Below, in pieces: positions 1,078 to 7,017 of a DNA stretch of 13,134 nt. Both the position numbers and the translations under genes were made by a program. The notes below the pieces were generated by a model. It saw nothing but the letters and a program-made list of their open reading frames with translations. It did no database searches and was not told the origin of the DNA. Every line of letters starts with the position of its first letter. Positions within the stretch are counted from its first letter, which is position 1. The DNA comes from a virus (lineage: Duplodnaviria; Heunggongvirae; Uroviricota; Caudoviricetes). The stretch lies in the IMG/VR virus record IMGVR_UViG_2645727640_000037; one strand, written 5' to 3'.

Positions 1078-1538
1078 GCAGAGTTGCCGCGATTATTTAT
1101 GCTCTGGTTATCTGCATCATCGTCTGCCTGTCATGGGCTGTTAATCATTACCGTGATAATGCCATTACCTACAAAGCGCAACGCGATAATGTGATGGAAA
1201 AACTCAACCAGGCGACCGCAATCATTACTGACATGCAGATACGCCAGCGTGATGTTGCTGCACTCGATGCAAAATACCTGAAGGAGTTAGCTGATGCGAA
1301 GGCTGAAAATGATGCTTTGCGTGATGATGTTGCCGCTGGTCGTCGGCGGTTGCACATCAAAGCAGTCTGTCAGTCAGTGCGTGAAGCCACCACCGCCTCC
1401 GGCGTGGATAATGCAACCAGCCCCCGACTGGCAGACACCGCTGAACGGGATTATTTCACCCTCAGAGAGCGGCTGATGACGATGCAGATGCAACTGGAAG
1501 GGGCACAGGAGTATATCCGCACTCAGTGCATTAAGTAG
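1074..1538 (+). CDS. Rz: Rz i-spanin (inner-membrane spanin subunit)
   Basis: The protein is near-identical to lambda Rz over most of its length ([38 protein letters not shown] ... [35 protein letters not shown]). The likely start is GTG 1074, overlapping the endolysin TGA stop (GTGA); the ORF track opens at TTG 1059. N-terminal TM helix then coiled-coil. Confidence 0.9.
1294..1476 (+). CDS. Rz1: Rz1 o-spanin (outer-membrane lipoprotein), embedded in the +1 frame of Rz
   Basis: 60-aa ORF fully inside Rz in another frame. Sequence [42 protein letters not shown]... has a lipoprotein signal peptide, a lipobox Cys and a proline-rich mature part, near-identical to lambda Rz1. Strong AAGGAG Shine-Dalgarno 7 nt upstream of ATG 1294. 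Confidence 0.88.
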
Positions 1539-1580
1539 CCTTTTTATCGTGGTAAACATTTCGCAGGGTATGAGGTATTT

Positions 1581-1931
1581 ATGCCATCACGAATCCCACG
1601 TGCCTGCCGTAAGCGTGGATGCGCAGGTACAACCACAGACAGTTCTGGTTACTGCGATAAACATCGTGGTGAAGGATGGGTACAGCATCAACGCGGACTG
1701 AGTCGCCACCAGCGTGGCTATGGCTCGAAATGGGATGTTATACGTGCGCGTATACTGAAGCGTGATAACCATCTGTGTAAGAACTGTCTGCGCAATGGAC
1801 GAGCCGTTGAGGCCAGGACTGTAGACCACATGATTCCAAAAGCTCATGGCGGCACCGATGATGACTCCAATCTTGAGTCGTTATGCAGGGAATGCCACAG
1901 AGAGAAGACAGCAAGGGAACGTATTCGATGA
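1581..1931 (+). CDS. HNH endonuclease, terminase-associated (HK97 gp74-like)
   Basis: 116-aa ORF with paired Cys motifs (CRKRGC...YCDKH; CKNC...CREC) and an HNH core (VDHMIPKAHGG...DDDSNLESLCRECH). Position just upstream of the terminase genes is typical for HK97-type cos phages. GAGG Shine-Dalgarno upstream. Confidence 0.9.
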   Translation: MPSRIPRACRKRGCAGTTTDSSGYCDKHRGEGWVQHQRGLSRHQRGYGSKWDVIRARILKRDNHLCKNCLRNGRAVEARTVDHMIPKAHGGTDDDSNLESLCRECHREKTARERIR

Positions 1932-2284
1932 TAATATTCACTGCTGTAATGCATAAAAATAGTTTCTATATTCATGCAGATACCCGGGAGGGATTTTGGG
2001 TTGTTTTAAGTGAAAAACTGGGATGGGGCAAATTTGAGTTAATTCGCCCCTCAGATGAGTTTAGCCCTACTGGAGGGTTGTTTGAATTAGTCGAAGTGCG
2101 TTCGGCAGATTCAGAACCCCCTGAGTCAGTAACTGTAGGGTCAAATGTTTTATGGCGTCTCCCGGAAGCTCTCGGAGTTTTGAAATCAATCCCTTCTTCT
2201 GATCTTCAGATATATTTGCGACACGGATTATATCCTCAAGGGCAACAATCGTGTCACTGTGTAACCGAAAGGTCTGAACTTTAA
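1928..2284 (+). CDS. Hypothetical protein (uncertain; convergently overlaps the minus-strand ORF 2067-2582)
   Basis: ATG 1928 overlaps the HNH stop (ATGA), which would allow translational coupling. There is no clear Shine-Dalgarno and the region is AT-rich. The 3' 218 nt overlap the minus-strand ORF, so this may be partly or wholly a shadow ORF. The ORF track opens this frame at 1883, inside HNH. Confidence 0.3.
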   Translation: MIIFTAVMHKNSFYIHADTREGFWVVLSEKLGWGKFELIRPSDEFSPTGGLFELVEVRSADSEPPESVTVGSNVLWRLPEALGVLKSIPSSDLQIYLRHGLYPQGQQSCHCVTERSEL

Positions 2285-2582
2285 GGATCGCACTTAAGCC
2301 GCCATCATCGAGAAGAAAATCAATTCCTTTTTCTGTAATGTAGCAGTTAGGGGCACAGAAGATAAACTCAACGCCAGCCATGGTGTCACTGCGTATGAAG
2401 GGGGTGGAAACGAGACCATGCATTTCAAGGTATAACATGCACGCCACAAAGTGATCGTAACTGTCAAACTTCTCAATGAGGTCTCGCTCCTGTGCCTTGT
2501 TTAAAGAGTTAGGCGCGCAATCTATAAGGGCATTGAGGATTTCAAGTTGTAAGGCTCTGTCATATTTTCTGGTTTTATCCAT
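2067..2582 (-). CDS. Hypothetical protein, 171 aa, opposite-strand cargo (moron) between HNH and terS; function unknown
   Basis: Minus-strand ORF with a GGAG Shine-Dalgarno 8 nt upstream of the ATG at 2582. Lower GC than the flanking structural genes. No signal peptide or TM segment seen; mildly acidic, helical-looking sequence. Same place and orientation as lambda bor, but not Bor-like. Confidence 0.6.
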   Translation of the reverse strand: MDKTRKYDRALQLEILNALIDCAPNSLNKAQERDLIEKFDSYDHFVACMLYLEMHGLVSTPFIRSDTMAGVEFIFCAPNCYITEKGIDFLLDDGGLSAILKVQTFRLHSDTIVALEDIIRVANISEDQKKGLISKLRELPGDAIKHLTLQLLTQGVLNLPNALRLIQTTLQ

Positions 2583-2680
2583 TTCTTAGACTCCATCTTT
2601 TATTTATTGAGATTAACTGAATACACCATGCTGAGCATCCTGATGGGTGGCCAGTATCTGCTTTTTGCCGCCATCTTCAA

Positions 2681-2694
2681 GGGGGAGGGGGGGG
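2681..2694. repeat. Homopolymeric G tract, G5-A-G8 (GGGGGAGGGGGGGG)
   Basis: Read directly from the sequence, in the intergenic region between the minus-strand cargo gene and terS. Confidence 0.9.
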
Positions 2695-2811
2695 ATCAAA
2701 TCTCTGCAACCCAGGCTGCTCAGTACCGCCGCCTGACCTTTCCTCGCATCGCCGCAGGTTCGAAAACTTTTTTTTGGAATGTGATTAAATGATTGATAGG
2801 TAAAACCGATT

Positions 2812-3294
2812 ATGTCTGGACCCCCGAAAACCCCGCCACGCCTGCATTTGATACGAGGTAACCCCTCAAAGCGGCCAGTTAAAGACTCCAAAAAAACCGC
2901 TAAAAAGGATGAAAAAGGTCTCCCTAAAATTCCGCAACATTTAGGGGCGCAGGGGAAGTACTGGTTCAGGCGAATGGCGGAAGAGCTGAATGCGGAAGGG
3001 ATCATTTCTCAGCTCGATGCACGTGCGCTCGAGTTACTGGTGGAAGCCTACACCGAATACCGGCATCACTGCGAAATACTCGATGTTGAGGGTTATACCT
3101 ACCGCACGGAAACGCAGAATGGCGATGTGCTGATCAAGGCACACCCGGCTGCTGCGATGAAGGCTGATGCCTGGAAGCGGATTCGGGCGATGCTTGCAGA
3201 GTTTGGTATGTCACCGGCAAGCCGGGCGAAAGTAAATACCGCCGGACCGGATGATGTTGATCCGCTGACAGAGCTTTTAAAAGCGAGAGACTGA
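2812..3294 (+). CDS. Terminase small subunit (P27 family, HK97-type)
   Basis: 160-aa ORF immediately upstream of, and overlapping by 1 nt (ATGA), the large terminase. Lys/Pro-rich N-terminus and a helical core (KYWFRRMAEELNAEGIISQLDARALELLVEAYTEY) fit P27-family small terminases as I recall them. Confidence 0.85.
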   Translation: MSGPPKTPPRLHLIRGNPSKRPVKDSKKTAKKDEKGLPKIPQHLGAQGKYWFRRMAEELNAEGIISQLDARALELLVEAYTEYRHHCEILDVEGYTYRTETQNGDVLIKAHPAAAMKADAWKRIRAMLAEFGMSPASRAKVNTAGPDDVDPLTELLKARD

Positions 3295-5051
3295 TGGCAA
3301 AAGTGGCTGACGGGATCCGCTACGCCGAACGTGTTGTTGCAGGAGAAATTGTTGCTGGCGAATTTGTCCGTCTGGCCTGCCAGCGTTTTCTTGATGATCT
3401 GAAGTACGGCGAAGAGCGGGGGATTTATTTCAGTGAACCTCGTGCACAGCACATCCTTAATTTCTACAAATTTGTACCCCATGTGAAAGGGGCGCTGGCA
3501 GGTCAGCCCATTGAGTTGATGGACTGGCATGTGTTTATCCTCATTAATATTTTTGGTTTTGTCATTCCGCTGGTGAATGAAGAAACCGGGGAAGTTGTCA
3601 TGCGCAGCGATGGCAGTGGACGCCCGGTGATGGTGCGCCGGTTCCGGACAGCATACAACGAAGTTGCCCGTAAAAACGCAAAATCAACCCTGTCATCGGG
3701 TATCGGTCTGTATATGACGGGGGCAGATGGTGAAGGCGGGGCTGAGGTGTATTCAGCCGCAACCACGCGTGACCAGGCCAGAATTGTGTTTGAAGACGCC
3801 AAAAATATGGTCAGAAAAGCCCGGTCGACACTCGGGCGGTTGTTTGATTTCAACAAGCTGGCGATTTACCAGGAGCAGAGCGCATCAAAATTTGAACCGC
3901 TTTCCTCGGATGCAAACAACCTGGACGGTCTGAACATCCACTGCGCCATTATTGATGAGCTGCATGCTCATAAAACCCGTGACGTGTGGGACGTTCTGGA
4001 AACGGCAACCGGTGCCCGTCTGCAGTCTCTGTTATTTGGCATCACCACGGCTGGCTTTAACAAGGAAGGGATTTGCTACGAGCAGCGCGATTACGCCATT
4101 AAGGTATTGCGAGGCTATAACAGCGACGTGGAGGGCGCGGTAAAAGACGACTCCTACTTTGCGATCATTTACACGCTCGATGAGGGAGATGATCCGTTTG
4201 ATGAAACGGTCTGGCAGAAAGCGAATCCTGGCCTGGGCATCTGTAAACGCTGGGATGATCTGCGTCGTCTGGCGAAAAAAGCGAAGGAGCAGGTCTCTGC
4301 GCGGGTGAATTTTTTTACCAAACACATGAATGTGTGGGTCACTGCCGAATCTGCCTGGATGGATATGATTAAGTGGGAGAAGTGCGAATACATTGCTCCA
4401 CAACATGAGCTGAAAACATATCCCATGTGGGTCGGCGTCGACCTTGCTCATAAGATTGATATCTGTGCGGCGGCAAAACTCTGGCGAACCGATAACGGAC
4501 ATGTTCATGCTGATTTTAAATTCTGGCTTCCGGAAGGACGGCTGGAGCGATGCTCGCGGCAGCAGGCAGAACTTTACCGGAAGTGGGCGGAGATGGATAA
4601 GCTCATCCTGACGGATGGTGATGTTATCGATCATGCTCAGATAAAAAGTGACTTACTGGAATGGATTGGCGGTGAAAACCTCAGGGAACTGGGATTTGAC
4701 CCGTGGAGCGCAATGCAGTTCAGCCTGGCACTGGCTGAAGAAGGGATACCGCTGGTGGAGGTTCCGCAGACGGTCCGCAATCTGTCAGAGGCCATGAAGG
4801 AAACGGAATCACTGGTTTATGCCGGGCGTTTCCATCACAGCAATCATCCGGTCATGAACTGGATGATGTCTAACGTTACGGTAAAACCGGACAAAAACGA
4901 CAACATCTTCCCGAATAAATCCACGCCTGAAGCCAAAATCGACGGCCCTGTTGCGCTTTTTACGGCCATGAGCCGCTTTCTGGTAAATGGCGGGGGCGTG
5001 AATGACTTCCTGTCCACGCTTGATCCTGATGAGGACCTGTTAATTCTGTGA
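3294..5051 (+). CDS. Terminase large subunit (ATPase plus nuclease), HK97 family
   Basis: 585-aa ORF with a P-loop-like segment (VARKNAKST), a Walker B-like IHCAIIDELH, and a C-terminal nuclease region. Position between terS and portal. Confidence 0.95.
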   Translation: MAKVADGIRYAERVVAGEIVAGEFVRLACQRFLDDLKYGEERGIYFSEPRAQHILNFYKFVPHVKGALAGQPIELMDWHVFILINIFGFVIPLVNEETGEVVMRSDGSGRPVMVRRFRTAYNEVARKNAKSTLSSGIGLYMTGADGEGGAEVYSAATTRDQARIVFEDAKNMVRKARSTLGRLFDFNKLAIYQEQSASKFEPLSSDANNLDGLNIHCAIIDELHAHKTRDVWDVLETATGARLQSLLFGITTAGFNKEGICYEQRDYAIKVLRGYNSDVEGAVKDDSYFAIIYTLDEGDDPFDETVWQKANPGLGICKRWDDLRRLAKKAKEQVSARVNFFTKHMNVWVTAESAWMDMIKWEKCEYIAPQHELKTYPMWVGVDLAHKIDICAAAKLWRTDNGHVHADFKFWLPEGRLERCSRQQAELYRKWAEMDKLILTDGDVIDHAQIKSDLLEWIGGENLRELGFDPWSAMQFSLALAEEGIPLVEVPQTVRNLSEAMKETESLVYAGRFHHSNHPVMNWMMSNVTVKPDKNDNIFPNKSTPEAKIDGPVALFTAMSRFLVNGGGVNDFLSTLDPDEDLLIL

Positions 5052-5209
5052 AACAGCTTATTACTGATATGACCGGGCTGATCGGTTTCGGTTTGCTCAC
5101 TGCTGGCGTTTATCTGTATGCAGGTCTGCCAGCGTCTCTGATGCTGTCGGGCTGTTTGTTGCTGCTTTATGCACTGGTGGTGTCCATGAGGAGAAAACAT
5201 GCTTCTTGA
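5048..5209 (+). CDS. Possible small membrane protein (about 46-53 aa, two predicted TM helices) between terL and portal
   Basis: Not in the ORF track (under 60 aa). The frame is open from GTG 5048 (overlapping the terL stop) or ATG 5069 to TGA 5207-5209. Translation ...MTGLIGFGLLTAGVYLYAGLPASLMLSGCLLLLYALVVSMRRKHAS is two hydrophobic stretches with a basic tail. It overlaps the portal start by 11 nt. Confidence 0.3.
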   Translation: MKQLITDMTGLIGFGLLTAGVYLYAGLPASLMLSGCLLLLYALVVSMRRKHAS

Positions 5210-6425
5210 TGCTCTGTTTCGCAGTGAGCCTCTGGAAAATCCCTCGGTTCCGGTAACCGAAGAGGCCGCTGAGACGGATAATATTTTTGCCCGGGATGTG
5301 TATGTCAGTCCGGAAACATCCATGAAGCTGGCTGCTGTCTATGCCTGTATTTATGTTATTTCATCCAGTGTGGCTCAGATGCCCCTGCATGTGATGCGAA
5401 AAACGAATGAGCATGTTCAGCCTGCACGCGATCATCCGTTGTTCTGGCTCGTTCATGATGAACCTAATGCCTGGCAGACCAGCTATAAGTGGCGGGAACT
5501 GAAGCAGCGTCATGTGCTGGGGTGGGGCAATGGTTATACGTGGGTAAAACGTAATCGTCGTGGAGAGGTTACCAGCCTTGAATGCTGTATGCCATGGGAA
5601 ACCACGTTACTTAACACCGGTGGGCGTCATACTTACGGGGTGTATAACGAAGAGGGTGCATTTGCGGTAAGTCCGGACGACATGATCCATATCAGGGCGC
5701 TGGGAAACAATCAGAAAATGGGACTGAGCCCGATCATGCAGCATGCTGAAACCATTGGTATGGGAATGAGTGGCCAGCAGTATACCAGCGCCTTTTTTAA
5801 CGGTAATGCCCGTCCTGCCGGTATTATTTCTGTGAAAAATGAACTGAACGAACAGAGCTGGGGCAGGCTTAAAAATATGTGGCAGCGGGCGGTGACAGCG
5901 CTTCGCAGCCAGGAAAATAAAACCATGCTGTTGCCTGCGCAACTGGATTACCGCGCTCTGACAGTTTCTCCGGTGGATGCTCAGATCATTGATATGACCA
6001 AGCTGAACAGGTCGATGATTGCAGGGATTTTTAATGTCCCGGCGCACATGATTAATGACCTGGAAAAAGCCACATTTTCGAATATTACGCAGCAGGCGAT
6101 TCAGTTTGTTCGCTACACGATGATGCCCTGGGTTGCGAACTGGGAGCAGGAGCTTAACCGTCGCCTGTTTACCCGTACAGAACGGGCTGCCGGGTATTAC
6201 GTTCGTTTCAACCTCACGGGGTTGCTCCGTGGGACCCCACAGGAGCGTGCGCAGTTCTATCACTTTGCCATTACAGATGGCTGGATGAGTCGGAATGAAG
6301 CCAGGGCATTTGAGGATATGAACCCGGTTGACGGTCTGGATGAAATGCTGGTCAGCGTAAATGCAGCAAATCCGTTGAATAACTTTAAAGATACGAAAGG
6401 CAAAGAGGAAAAGAACGATGAATGA
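5199..6425 (+). CDS. Portal protein (HK97 family)
   Basis: 408-aa ORF with a strong GAGGAG Shine-Dalgarno. Size and position (after terL, before the prohead protease) match HK97-type portals, and the C-terminus is acidic. Confidence 0.93.
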   Translation: MLLDALFRSEPLENPSVPVTEEAAETDNIFARDVYVSPETSMKLAAVYACIYVISSSVAQMPLHVMRKTNEHVQPARDHPLFWLVHDEPNAWQTSYKWRELKQRHVLGWGNGYTWVKRNRRGEVTSLECCMPWETTLLNTGGRHTYGVYNEEGAFAVSPDDMIHIRALGNNQKMGLSPIMQHAETIGMGMSGQQYTSAFFNGNARPAGIISVKNELNEQSWGRLKNMWQRAVTALRSQENKTMLLPAQLDYRALTVSPVDAQIIDMTKLNRSMIAGIFNVPAHMINDLEKATFSNITQQAIQFVRYTMMPWVANWEQELNRRLFTRTERAAGYYVRFNLTGLLRGTPQERAQFYHFAITDGWMSRNEARAFEDMNPVDGLDEMLVSVNAANPLNNFKDTKGKEEKNDE

Positions 6426-7017
6426 CCGTGAAACGCGCTGTTACAGCGGGGAGGTGCGGGCGGAACAATATGATAATGCCCCGACCCACATTCTGGGGTA
6501 TGGCTCGGTATTTAACAGTCGTTCAGAACCTCTGTGGGGATTTCGTGAAATCATCAAGCCGGGGGCTTTTGATGATGTACTGAATGATGATGTACGTGGC
6601 TTGTTTAATCATGATCCTAATTTCATTCTCGGACGAAGTTCTGCCGGCACATTGTCATTGTCGGTGGATGAACGCGGTTTACGTTATGACATTGTTGCAC
6701 CGGATACTCCGACTATTTGTGACCTGGTGCTGTCTCCAATGTTGCGTGGTGACATTAACCAGTCCTCGTTCGCGTTTCGTGTCGCCCGTGACGGAGAGAG
6801 CTGGTATGAAGACGACGAGGGGATTGTTATCCGGGAAATCACGCGCATTTCTCGTCTGTATGACGTCAGCCCGGTGACATATCCGGCCTATCAGGACGCA
6901 GACTCCGGTGTCCGCTCAATGAAAGCCTGGCAGGAAGCGCGGGCGAGTGGTGCGCTGAAGAAAGCTGTTAATGAACGAATGGCGCGTGAGCGCCTTTTGA
7001 CCCTTCTTAATGCATAA
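6418..7017 (+). CDS. Prohead maturation protease (HK97 gp4-like, S78 family)
   Basis: 199-aa ORF overlapping the portal stop. Position between portal and major capsid protein; conserved His (GLFNHDPN) and Ser (INQSSFAF) candidates for the catalytic dyad. Confidence 0.9.
   Translation: MNDRETRCYSGEVRAEQYDNAPTHILGYGSVFNSRSEPLWGFREIIKPGAFDDVLNDDVRGLFNHDPNFILGRSSAGTLSLSVDERGLRYDIVAPDTPTICDLVLSPMLRGDINQSSFAFRVARDGESWYEDDEGIVIREITRISRLYDVSPVTYPAYQDADSGVRSMKAWQEARASGALKKAVNERMARERLLTLLNA

Follow-up and report, generated by a model that had tools for sequence, protein, structure and literature searches.

What has come to lie between the HNH endonuclease gene and the gene for the small terminase subunit (terS) in IMG/VR virus record IMGVR_UViG_2645727640_000037, and what might it do for the prophage that carries it? 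The window (the whole 13,134-nt stretch of DNA analyzed) is the late region of an Escherichia coli lambdoid prophage with a head/packaging module of the HK97 type. A preliminary description, made from the letters of the sequence, had reported a single cargo gene at this site, a minus-strand open reading frame (ORF) that is here called gene A. We found that gene A is not single-gene cargo, since what moves is a pair of convergent genes that overlap; its plus-strand partner (gene B, 1928–2284) had been missed. The resulting A/B cassette is very probably a mobile insertion that holds two real genes, linked obligatorily by their overlap and fixed in polarity relative to the phage operons. Its features, in window coordinates, are as follows.

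1861–2681: exchanged segment, present in place of 89 bp in the empty HNH–terS spacer of related prophages, from alignment to empty sites
1928–2284, plus strand: gene B, 118 amino acids (aa), unannotated; start codon and HNH stop codon overlap as ATGA
2067–2582, minus strand: gene A, 171 aa (phrog_3983); winged helix, DDGGL linker and four-helix bundle
2070–2198, both strands: dual-coding core, gene A codons 129–171 and gene B codons ~48–90
2591–2594, minus strand: Shine-Dalgarno (SD) sequence GGAG of gene A, which reads ctcc on the plus strand
2640–2654: palindrome CTG-N9-CAG, at −72 from the gene A ATG
2682–2811: conserved 130-bp spacer, common with empty-site relatives, upstream of terS and outside the cassette

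The HNH stop codon and the terS start codon are separated by 880 nt, the figure that had been given earlier for the size of the insert. Both the distance and the insertion itself stand, but the net gain is only ~732 bp, because 821 bp (1861–2681) lie in place of 89 bp, as revealed by alignment with two empty sites. The left joint falls within the last ~70 nt of HNH (1861–1931), where the window carries an allele that differs from that of the empty sites, and the right joint lies just 5′ of the conserved 130-bp spacer preceding terS. The HNH/terS region was matched in 955 of 5,426 complete E. coli genomes and the whole stretch in 27 of these 955; thus, far from being the same ORF in all related phages, gene A is absent from ~97% of related E. 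coli prophages and is accessory cargo rather than a core gene, as the preliminary description had proposed. The same DNA as in the window is held by a complete prophage adjoining a tRNA-Ser gene in E. coli CT265, and phage PhiR49_2 (recorded host ECOR13) is ~99% identical across the compared stretch (window 1500–3300), with a gene A protein that is 100% identical.

The slot was surveyed in an even-step sample of 40 records among E. coli relatives. HNH and terS adjoined each other, ~147 bp apart, in 33 of the 40, which agrees with the arrangement that had been taken as normal; two records carried the insert, and one had an insertion sequence in the gap (an ISVsa5-family IS4-like element in E. 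coli 2009C-3133, hit H34). The A+B cassette was the only recurrent occupant. Since the slot is empty in most of the sampled relatives, it does not appear to be a variable-cargo hotspot in this lineage, and the earlier expectation of variable cargo in related prophages was not borne out. The guanine-cytosine (GC) content of the gene A ORF is 44.4% and that of positions 1925–2680 is 42.9%, compared with 51.6% for the remainder of the window, so the lower GC content relative to the structural genes was correctly noted. As expected of a moron, the cassette combines this deviating composition with presence or absence between otherwise near-identical phages.

What, then, does the cassette encode besides gene A? 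Comparison of the window with cassettes elsewhere revealed that DNA similarity continues ~140 nt past the gene A stop codon and ends at 1925–1928. This endpoint is the gene B start codon, directly after the exchanged 3′ end of HNH, and the gene B frame consists of the stretch beyond the gene A stop together with the antisense of the gene A 3′ end. Its conserved core comprises approximately the first 90 codons (1928–2197), while the tail is unconstrained. The encoded peptide, which starts with MIIFTAVMHKNSFYIHADTREGFWVVLSEKLGWGKFELIRPSDEFSPTGGLFEL... in the window, MKIFTANIHPNGFFINADWNGTYFWIYLSRALGWGKFTLIR... in Proteus and MKIYACHFHPNGFFISTEAQHDFWFFLGPLIGWGRFSMIR... in Salmonella, is conserved in every context, and gene B is intact in 95 of 101 enterobacterial cassettes. 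Judging from its substitutions, gene B is under purifying selection: the ratio of nonsynonymous to synonymous substitution rates (dN/dS) is 0.14 over the ~46 codons that lie outside gene A, whereas for the same codons four other frames give 1.06 to 1.76 and the mirror frame gives 0.30. Gene B begins with a conserved ATG that has an SD-like GAGG/AGGAG, or with an ATGA junction. AlphaFold predicts a five-stranded beta domain at residues 1–60 (predicted local distance difference test [pLDDT] 84–91), followed by a lower-confidence helix and a disordered tail, in agreement with the lack of constraint there. Gene B is almost never annotated, with only 17 entries among 5.8 billion database proteins, as gene callers miss it. 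In Klebsiella prophage loci L015–L017, a frameshift splits the gene B frame and gene A is intact, which may reflect a decaying partner gene or an artefact of sequencing.

The two genes overlap tail-to-tail by 218 nt in the window, with a dual-coding core of at least 128 nt that is read from opposite strands such that codon position 3 of gene A is position 2 of gene B. Synonymous differences in gene A are saturated over codons 1–128 (0.71 to 0.86) and drop to 0.24 to 0.27 over codons 129–171 (the minimal overlap); synonymous change in its last 43 codons is thus suppressed because gene B overlaps there. Correspondingly, the pairwise identity of gene A third positions ranges from 0.76 to 0.87 in the overlap versus 0.44 to 0.48 elsewhere. 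The antisense frame is identical in 19 divergent lineages and remains open 125 to 227 nt into gene A, whereas synonymous resampling of gene A (5,000 replicates) yielded a median open run of only 20 to 59 nt (P ≤ 0.008 in each lineage). In 80 further E. coli genomes, blastn detected no segment other than the dual-coding core (2070–2198). Since the convergent genes have at least 128 nt in common that code on both strands, their mRNAs would be complementary. Long antisense coding overlaps are usually doubted; this one is among the better-supported protein-coding examples in bacteria and phages, extending over several bacterial orders, on evolutionary evidence alone. We also observed a terminator-like hairpin on the late-operon strand (2062–2080, plus strand), within gene B where the overlap with gene A begins. 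It coincides with conserved SPTGGLFEL codons, has a counterpart at L048 6504–6520, and could be an attenuator of gene B or a by-product of coding.

The pair recurs in at least five other prophage positions besides HNH–terS. Gene A occupies the HNH–terS gap next to two different terS families; in Salmonella and Klebsiella it separates the Q antiterminator gene from the holin gene, and in Proteus the tape measure gene from that for tail protein M. It also lies between a pair of glycosyltransferase-like genes, behind a Rha-like gene and, in a CPS-53-like prophage, within the early-left (integrase-side) operon, where it follows a cI-like repressor and ParA. In each lineage examined, gene A was a solitary gene oriented against its neighbors. 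By crude ORF calls, both neighbors were antisense to gene A in 71 of 95 loci, and in the remaining loci one nearest called ORF was co-oriented with it. In Acinetobacter phage AbIPP1, gene A lies directly downstream of cI on the same strand, and the gene A of Edwardsiella phage GF-2 overlaps the stop codon of an Arc/Mnt-like repressor gene; such sites are typical of lysogen-expressed genes in lysogeny-type units. Linkage was further analyzed in a distant set of 80 loci, including loci from Pseudomonas, Acinetobacter, Burkholderia, Janthinobacterium, Stenotrophomonas and Mesorhizobium. When these loci were searched with an iterated gene B profile, 57 of their 8,408 open frames gave a match, and all 57 lay on the strand opposite gene A. 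Fifty of these fell in coordinate bins at the gene A 3′ end, in loci with gene A at the standard position, and the other seven appear to come from short-flank loci with gene A at other coordinates. Altogether, gene B was found in ~47 of the 80 distant loci. One IMG/VR contig (L087) holds two copies of the gene A family (480–971 and 6001–6483), one with gene B and one without.

What kind of protein gene A encodes was addressed through homology and predicted structure. The ORF has an ATG start and a GGAG 8 nt 5′ of it, as described earlier for the 171-aa minus-strand frame. One search returned 194 homologues, and a profile search run exhaustively against 1.8 billion cluster representatives returned 1,032 clusters at 50% identity (E ≤ 0.001); most of the best 150 of these 1,032 matches are 155 to 175 aa long. 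The family spans Alpha-, Beta- and Gammaproteobacteria. Given these many homologues and a confident AlphaFold model, gene A is a real gene. The protein had no match in Pfam, NCBIfam or PADLOC. It matched phrog_3983 (“unknown function”) from end to end (E = 1e-56), and its named homologues are all “hypothetical” or “uncharacterized protein,” except for one UniRef label, “Transcriptional regulator.” Neither the gene A nor the gene B family belongs to a named family, in keeping with the earlier failure to assign one to gene A.

The AlphaFold model of gene A (pLDDT 87.6) comprises a winged helix (residues 1–90), a conserved DDGGLSAIL linker and a four-helix bundle. In this model, the winged helix resembles YjcQ, DUF2513 and MarR at the level of the fold only. 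Specifically, the match to YjcQ (E = 0.18, 12.5 bits) did not reach the Pfam cut-off of 23.3; sub-threshold DUF2513 matches occurred in 32 of 71 distant gene A relatives at E ≤ 1 (best E = 1e-4); and a BFVD fold search yielded partial YjcQ-like matches, none at E ≤ 0.001. A literature search on DUF2513 yielded nothing useful, and we know of no function for either YjcQ or DUF2513. The gene A family is acidic, with a median isoelectric point of ~5.5 and an N-domain net charge of −3 to −4, and its putative recognition helix has a mean of 0.5 to 0.9 Lys/Arg compared with ~2 Asp/Glu, which weakens the case for a role in DNA binding. Residues 25–48, on the winged-helix surface, are hypervariable and the C-terminal half is strongly conserved, a pattern that fits a variable recognition part joined to a constant partner-binding part. 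Two other leads were rejected. Matches to staphylococcal Protein A (Protein Data Bank hits with E down to 2e-9) were weak scores summed over tandem repeats and were put down to chance, as single domains score only E = 0.3 to 10, and a possible metal site (H108, H146, D93 and E138) was discarded because H146 and E138 are not kept in the wider family.

How the two genes might be expressed was examined from the signals around them. In most loci, the gene B start lies between −4 (ATGA) and +15 nt from the stop codon of the upstream co-directional gene; because this leaves no room for a promoter of its own, gene B must be read with the phage operon. The SD sequence of gene A is conserved as GGAG/AGGAG across contexts. 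Upstream of it, CTG-N9-CAG occurs at −71 to −77 (mostly −72) in 30 of 41 distinct upstream regions of the enterobacterial subfamily, including fixed-distance cassettes with otherwise diverged flanks (L001, L023, L047, L057, L063, L065, L069, L083, L086 and L087), and a further conserved block lies upstream of gene A besides this palindrome. Within the enterobacterial subfamily, we regard CTG-N9-CAG as a candidate operator or promoter element; it was not enriched in non-enterobacterial relatives. A LexA box (CTG-N10-CAG) was considered and rejected, since 32 of the 35 occurrences of the motif have N9 spacing and no such motif is found beyond Enterobacterales. Other contexts have a strong intrinsic terminator on the operon strand just past the gene A upstream region. 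The window has none, as expected because late transcription must continue into terS. From the gene order in other phages, we infer that gene A is expressed from the prophage. The layout as a whole is that of a “non-contiguous operon,” with gene A antisense within the lytic operon and the overlapping gene B in the operon direction.

What might such a pair do? As in the earlier description, the best reading of gene A is that of a candidate exclusion or defense gene, for which Tai/Ati, TERi and Tha/Ith provide published architectural precedents. On this basis we tentatively favor, slightly short of an even balance, a reading in which gene A is a lysogen-state anti-phage protein and gene B a lytic-phase antidote, with reciprocal expression through convergent transcription. 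Transcription of gene A would start in the DNA upstream of it and run counter to the phage operon around it. In the lysogen, where the late operon would be silent, gene A would be made and gene B would not, and gene A could act as a prophage-state exclusion protein, probably via protein contacts of its acidic winged-helix domain. Upon induction, Q-driven late transcription would pass through gene B and run antisense across gene A, which may lower gene A as gene B is produced; gene B would then neutralize gene A, sparing the phage from blocking itself. It is also possible, though a somewhat more doubtful proposition, that A/B constitutes a widespread, unrecognized prophage defense family with built-in self-immunity, spanning three proteobacterial classes and more than 1,000 clusters at 50% identity. 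In that case the antidote would be welded to the defense gene by the antisense dual-coding overlap, which would make the two genes inseparable by recombination. The expression pattern, the antagonism between A and B and the defense function are thus proposed by analogy.

Several points weigh against the exclusion/antidote reading. Enzymatic and membrane domains are lacking in both gene A and gene B, which leaves no effector activity to point to, and gene A and the gene B-containing ORF matched no family in PADLOC-DB 2.0 at E ≤ 1. No sigma-70 consensus promoter was found upstream of gene A in the four loci scanned, and ~40% of the distant gene A genes have no detectable gene B. The parallel with Tai/Ati is also imperfect: in phi80, tai and ati overlap by 20 nt in a head-to-head arrangement, with ati on the downstream side, whereas the overlap of A and B is tail-to-tail, comprises 128 to 218 nt of dual coding and has gene B upstream. 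Membership in these families was rejected for both proteins, with hhalign probabilities of 0.2% for gene A versus TaiEcA, 0.16% for gene A versus a 12-sequence Tai profile and 0.25% for gene B versus AtiEcA. Finally, a winged helix combined with a conserved upstream palindrome could mean that gene A is simply an autoregulated transcription factor.

This last point leads to the alternative that survives best, although it is rather unlikely: the roles are reversed in a toxin-antitoxin-like manner, with gene B as a lytic-phase effector (for host takeover, anti-defense, or toxic if leaky) and gene A as its regulator or antidote. Gene A would bind CTG-N9-CAG, autoregulate, and silence or neutralize gene B in the lysogen, assisted by the antisense overlap. 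Its MarR/YjcQ-like winged helix and a helical bundle of the dimerization kind would suit such a regulator, as would a palindrome fixed at −72 in many lineages; in addition, gene B sits within lytic operons, and forced co-inheritance recalls addiction modules. However, a putative recognition helix with more Asp/Glu than Lys/Arg in an acidic family is at odds with operator binding, the palindrome is missing outside Enterobacterales, and the many gene A genes that lack gene B would be odd if gene A only controlled gene B. Nor is this a type II toxin-antitoxin operon, a candidate that we rejected because the genes are convergent rather than co-directional and co-transcribed.

Could gene A instead be a lysogenic-conversion transcription factor for host or other prophage genes, with gene B an unrelated small late protein compacted against it? 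Prophages carry host-directed regulators, the fold is a winged helix, and one homologue is labeled a transcriptional regulator in one database. We nevertheless consider this improbable, as gene A and gene B move together to unrelated positions with homology stopping exactly at the gene B start, one overlap frame is maintained across bacterial orders, a linkage that is unexpected for unrelated genes, and the DNA-reading surface is acidic.

It is highly improbable that gene B is untranslated and that the conservation past gene A marks an RNA or DNA element (a terminator, an antisense RNA or a recombination site). The hairpin on the plus strand at the gene A stop (2062–2080) and the near-absence of gene B from protein databases, where gene callers pass over it, would agree with this, yet they are countered by the frame-specific dN/dS outside the overlap, the conserved start with its SD-like sequence or ATGA junction, the conservation of gene A third positions precisely where gene B has its second positions, and a confidently modeled beta domain; moreover, an Rfam search returned nothing relevant. 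That the cassette simply assists packaging or cos in this phage lineage, as the neighboring HNH, cos and terS might suggest, is scarcely credible for a unit that is missing from ~97% of the prophages with the same HNH, terS and large terminase genes and that occupies tail, lysis, early and immunity positions elsewhere.

With the A/B cassette, a large unnamed family (phrog_3983 and relatives) and its wholly unannotated partner family join the few candidate modules of prophages that have a defense gene and a self-immunity gene on opposite strands. Because gene callers systematically miss the in-line partner (the 17 entries in 5.8 billion noted above), surveys undercount two-component prophage cargo. 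An antidote invisible to standard annotation would further imply that other “single-gene morons” may hide opposite-strand partners. The genetic predictions that follow for the A/B cassette are clear, and phage PhiR49_2 from ECOR13 is available for testing them.

How does the cassette sit among the other genes of the late region? The genes around it are as follows.

130–480: YdfR-like gene
544–1077: lysozyme gene
1059–1538: Rz gene
1294–1476, plus strand: Rz1-like ORF, proline-rich and lipoprotein-like, within Rz in the +1 frame, the usual Rz1 arrangement
1581–1931, plus strand: HNH endonuclease gene of the packaging module (PF01844, E = 9e-16)
2812–3294: terS, small terminase of the P27 type (PF05119, E = 2e-25)
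3294–5051: large terminase gene, followed by portal, protease, major capsid and tail genes

From the HK97-type gene order, the conserved spacer at 2682–2811 is presumably the cos region. The Prokaryotic Genome Annotation Pipeline (PGAP) calls a 54-aa “hypothetical protein” over this spacer (2629–2793, plus strand); the call is unlikely to represent a gene. A 53-aa ORF that separates the large terminase gene from the portal gene (5048–5209, plus strand; MKQLITDMTGLIGFGLLTAGVYLYAGLPASLMLSGCLLLLYALVV...) has two hydrophobic stretches and is also “hypothetical” in PGAP. The annotation of PhiR49_2 (PV340570.1) contains neither HNH nor gene B; at the site of the HNH gene, its equivalent of 17743–18093, it places a “hypothetical protein” on the minus strand. 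In a related prophage of E. coli KFu019 (L004 580–1065), an antisense GNAT acetyltransferase gene lies between the Rz gene and HNH, representing a second antisense cargo slot that neighbors the HNH–terS slot.

How, finally, does the A/B cassette compare with known systems? The closest positional parallel proposed earlier was lambda bor, and gene A does share with bor its location between the lysis genes and cos and its nature as cargo antisense to the late operon, putatively with a single promoter. In contrast, Bor is a small lipoprotein, whereas gene A has a hydrophilic N-terminus (MDKTRKYDRALQ) without a hydrophobic segment or signal peptide, a two-domain cytoplasmic fold and no hit to Bor (PF06291) in Pfam at E ≤ 0.1, so that the view of gene A as a cytoplasmic, non-Bor-like protein is upheld. 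Relative to YjcQ and DUF2513 (PF09639 and PF10711; PDB 2hgc), gene A adds the DDGGL linker and the four-helix bundle.

Overlapping exclusion genes are known from Pseudomonas phage Fc02, where olg1/olg2 overlap gene 10 (PMC9936078). As in A/B, the overlap joins opposite strands; in Fc02, one gene is read in the lysogen, the other belongs to the lytic operon, and there is superinfection exclusion activity. The Fc02 overlap differs in being complete and in lying in the immunity region of a transposable phage, and tblastn with gene A matched no transposable phage of this kind. BstA/aba is a further module that couples prophage defense with self-immunity (PMC8585504). In TERi of Listeria phage phi10403S, the defense gene orf65 overlaps a gene on the opposite strand, and Tha/Ith and Tab share this opposite-strand logic (10.1101/2025.02.27.640495). 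TERi resembles the proposed A/B arrangement in that its defense gene, which has its own promoter, lies on the strand opposite the lytic operon and overlaps an ORF there, with self-immunity genes located in the lytic operon. The hosts and proteins differ, however (TerI has 65 aa), the overlapped gene of TERi is not the antidote (anti-TerI1/2), and homology between the two systems was compared through family libraries only.

At the sequence level, tblastn of gene A against 50,697 phage records did not match phi80. An alignment of the Tai family has an invariant LRNDLAHN block (TaiEcA residues 94–101) with an R-x4-H pattern, which we take to resemble a HEPN motif. The sections of PMC11364771 that were consulted make no mention of such a HEPN-like block, and its supplement does not contain the accessions checked for gene A and two of its E. 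coli homologues (WP_000361881, WP_000357060 and WP_061092239). That study places the phi80 defense gene on the antisense strand of the late operon and most tai genes ahead of the packaging module. The lysogen produces TaiEcA, and Q reduces it; phi80 without ati has a lower titer of its own, with survivors that carry inactivating mutations in the defense gene; and the cognate pair AtiSalB/TaiSalB interacts in a two-hybrid assay (PMC11364771). Tai/Ati and A/B are alike as moron-type cargo of several prophage hotspots that PADLOC does not recognize, and in both the larger gene is antisense to a Q-dependent late operon while the small overlapping partner runs in the operon direction. The position of the cassette in the window, between the lysis genes and cos, is that of phi80 tai.

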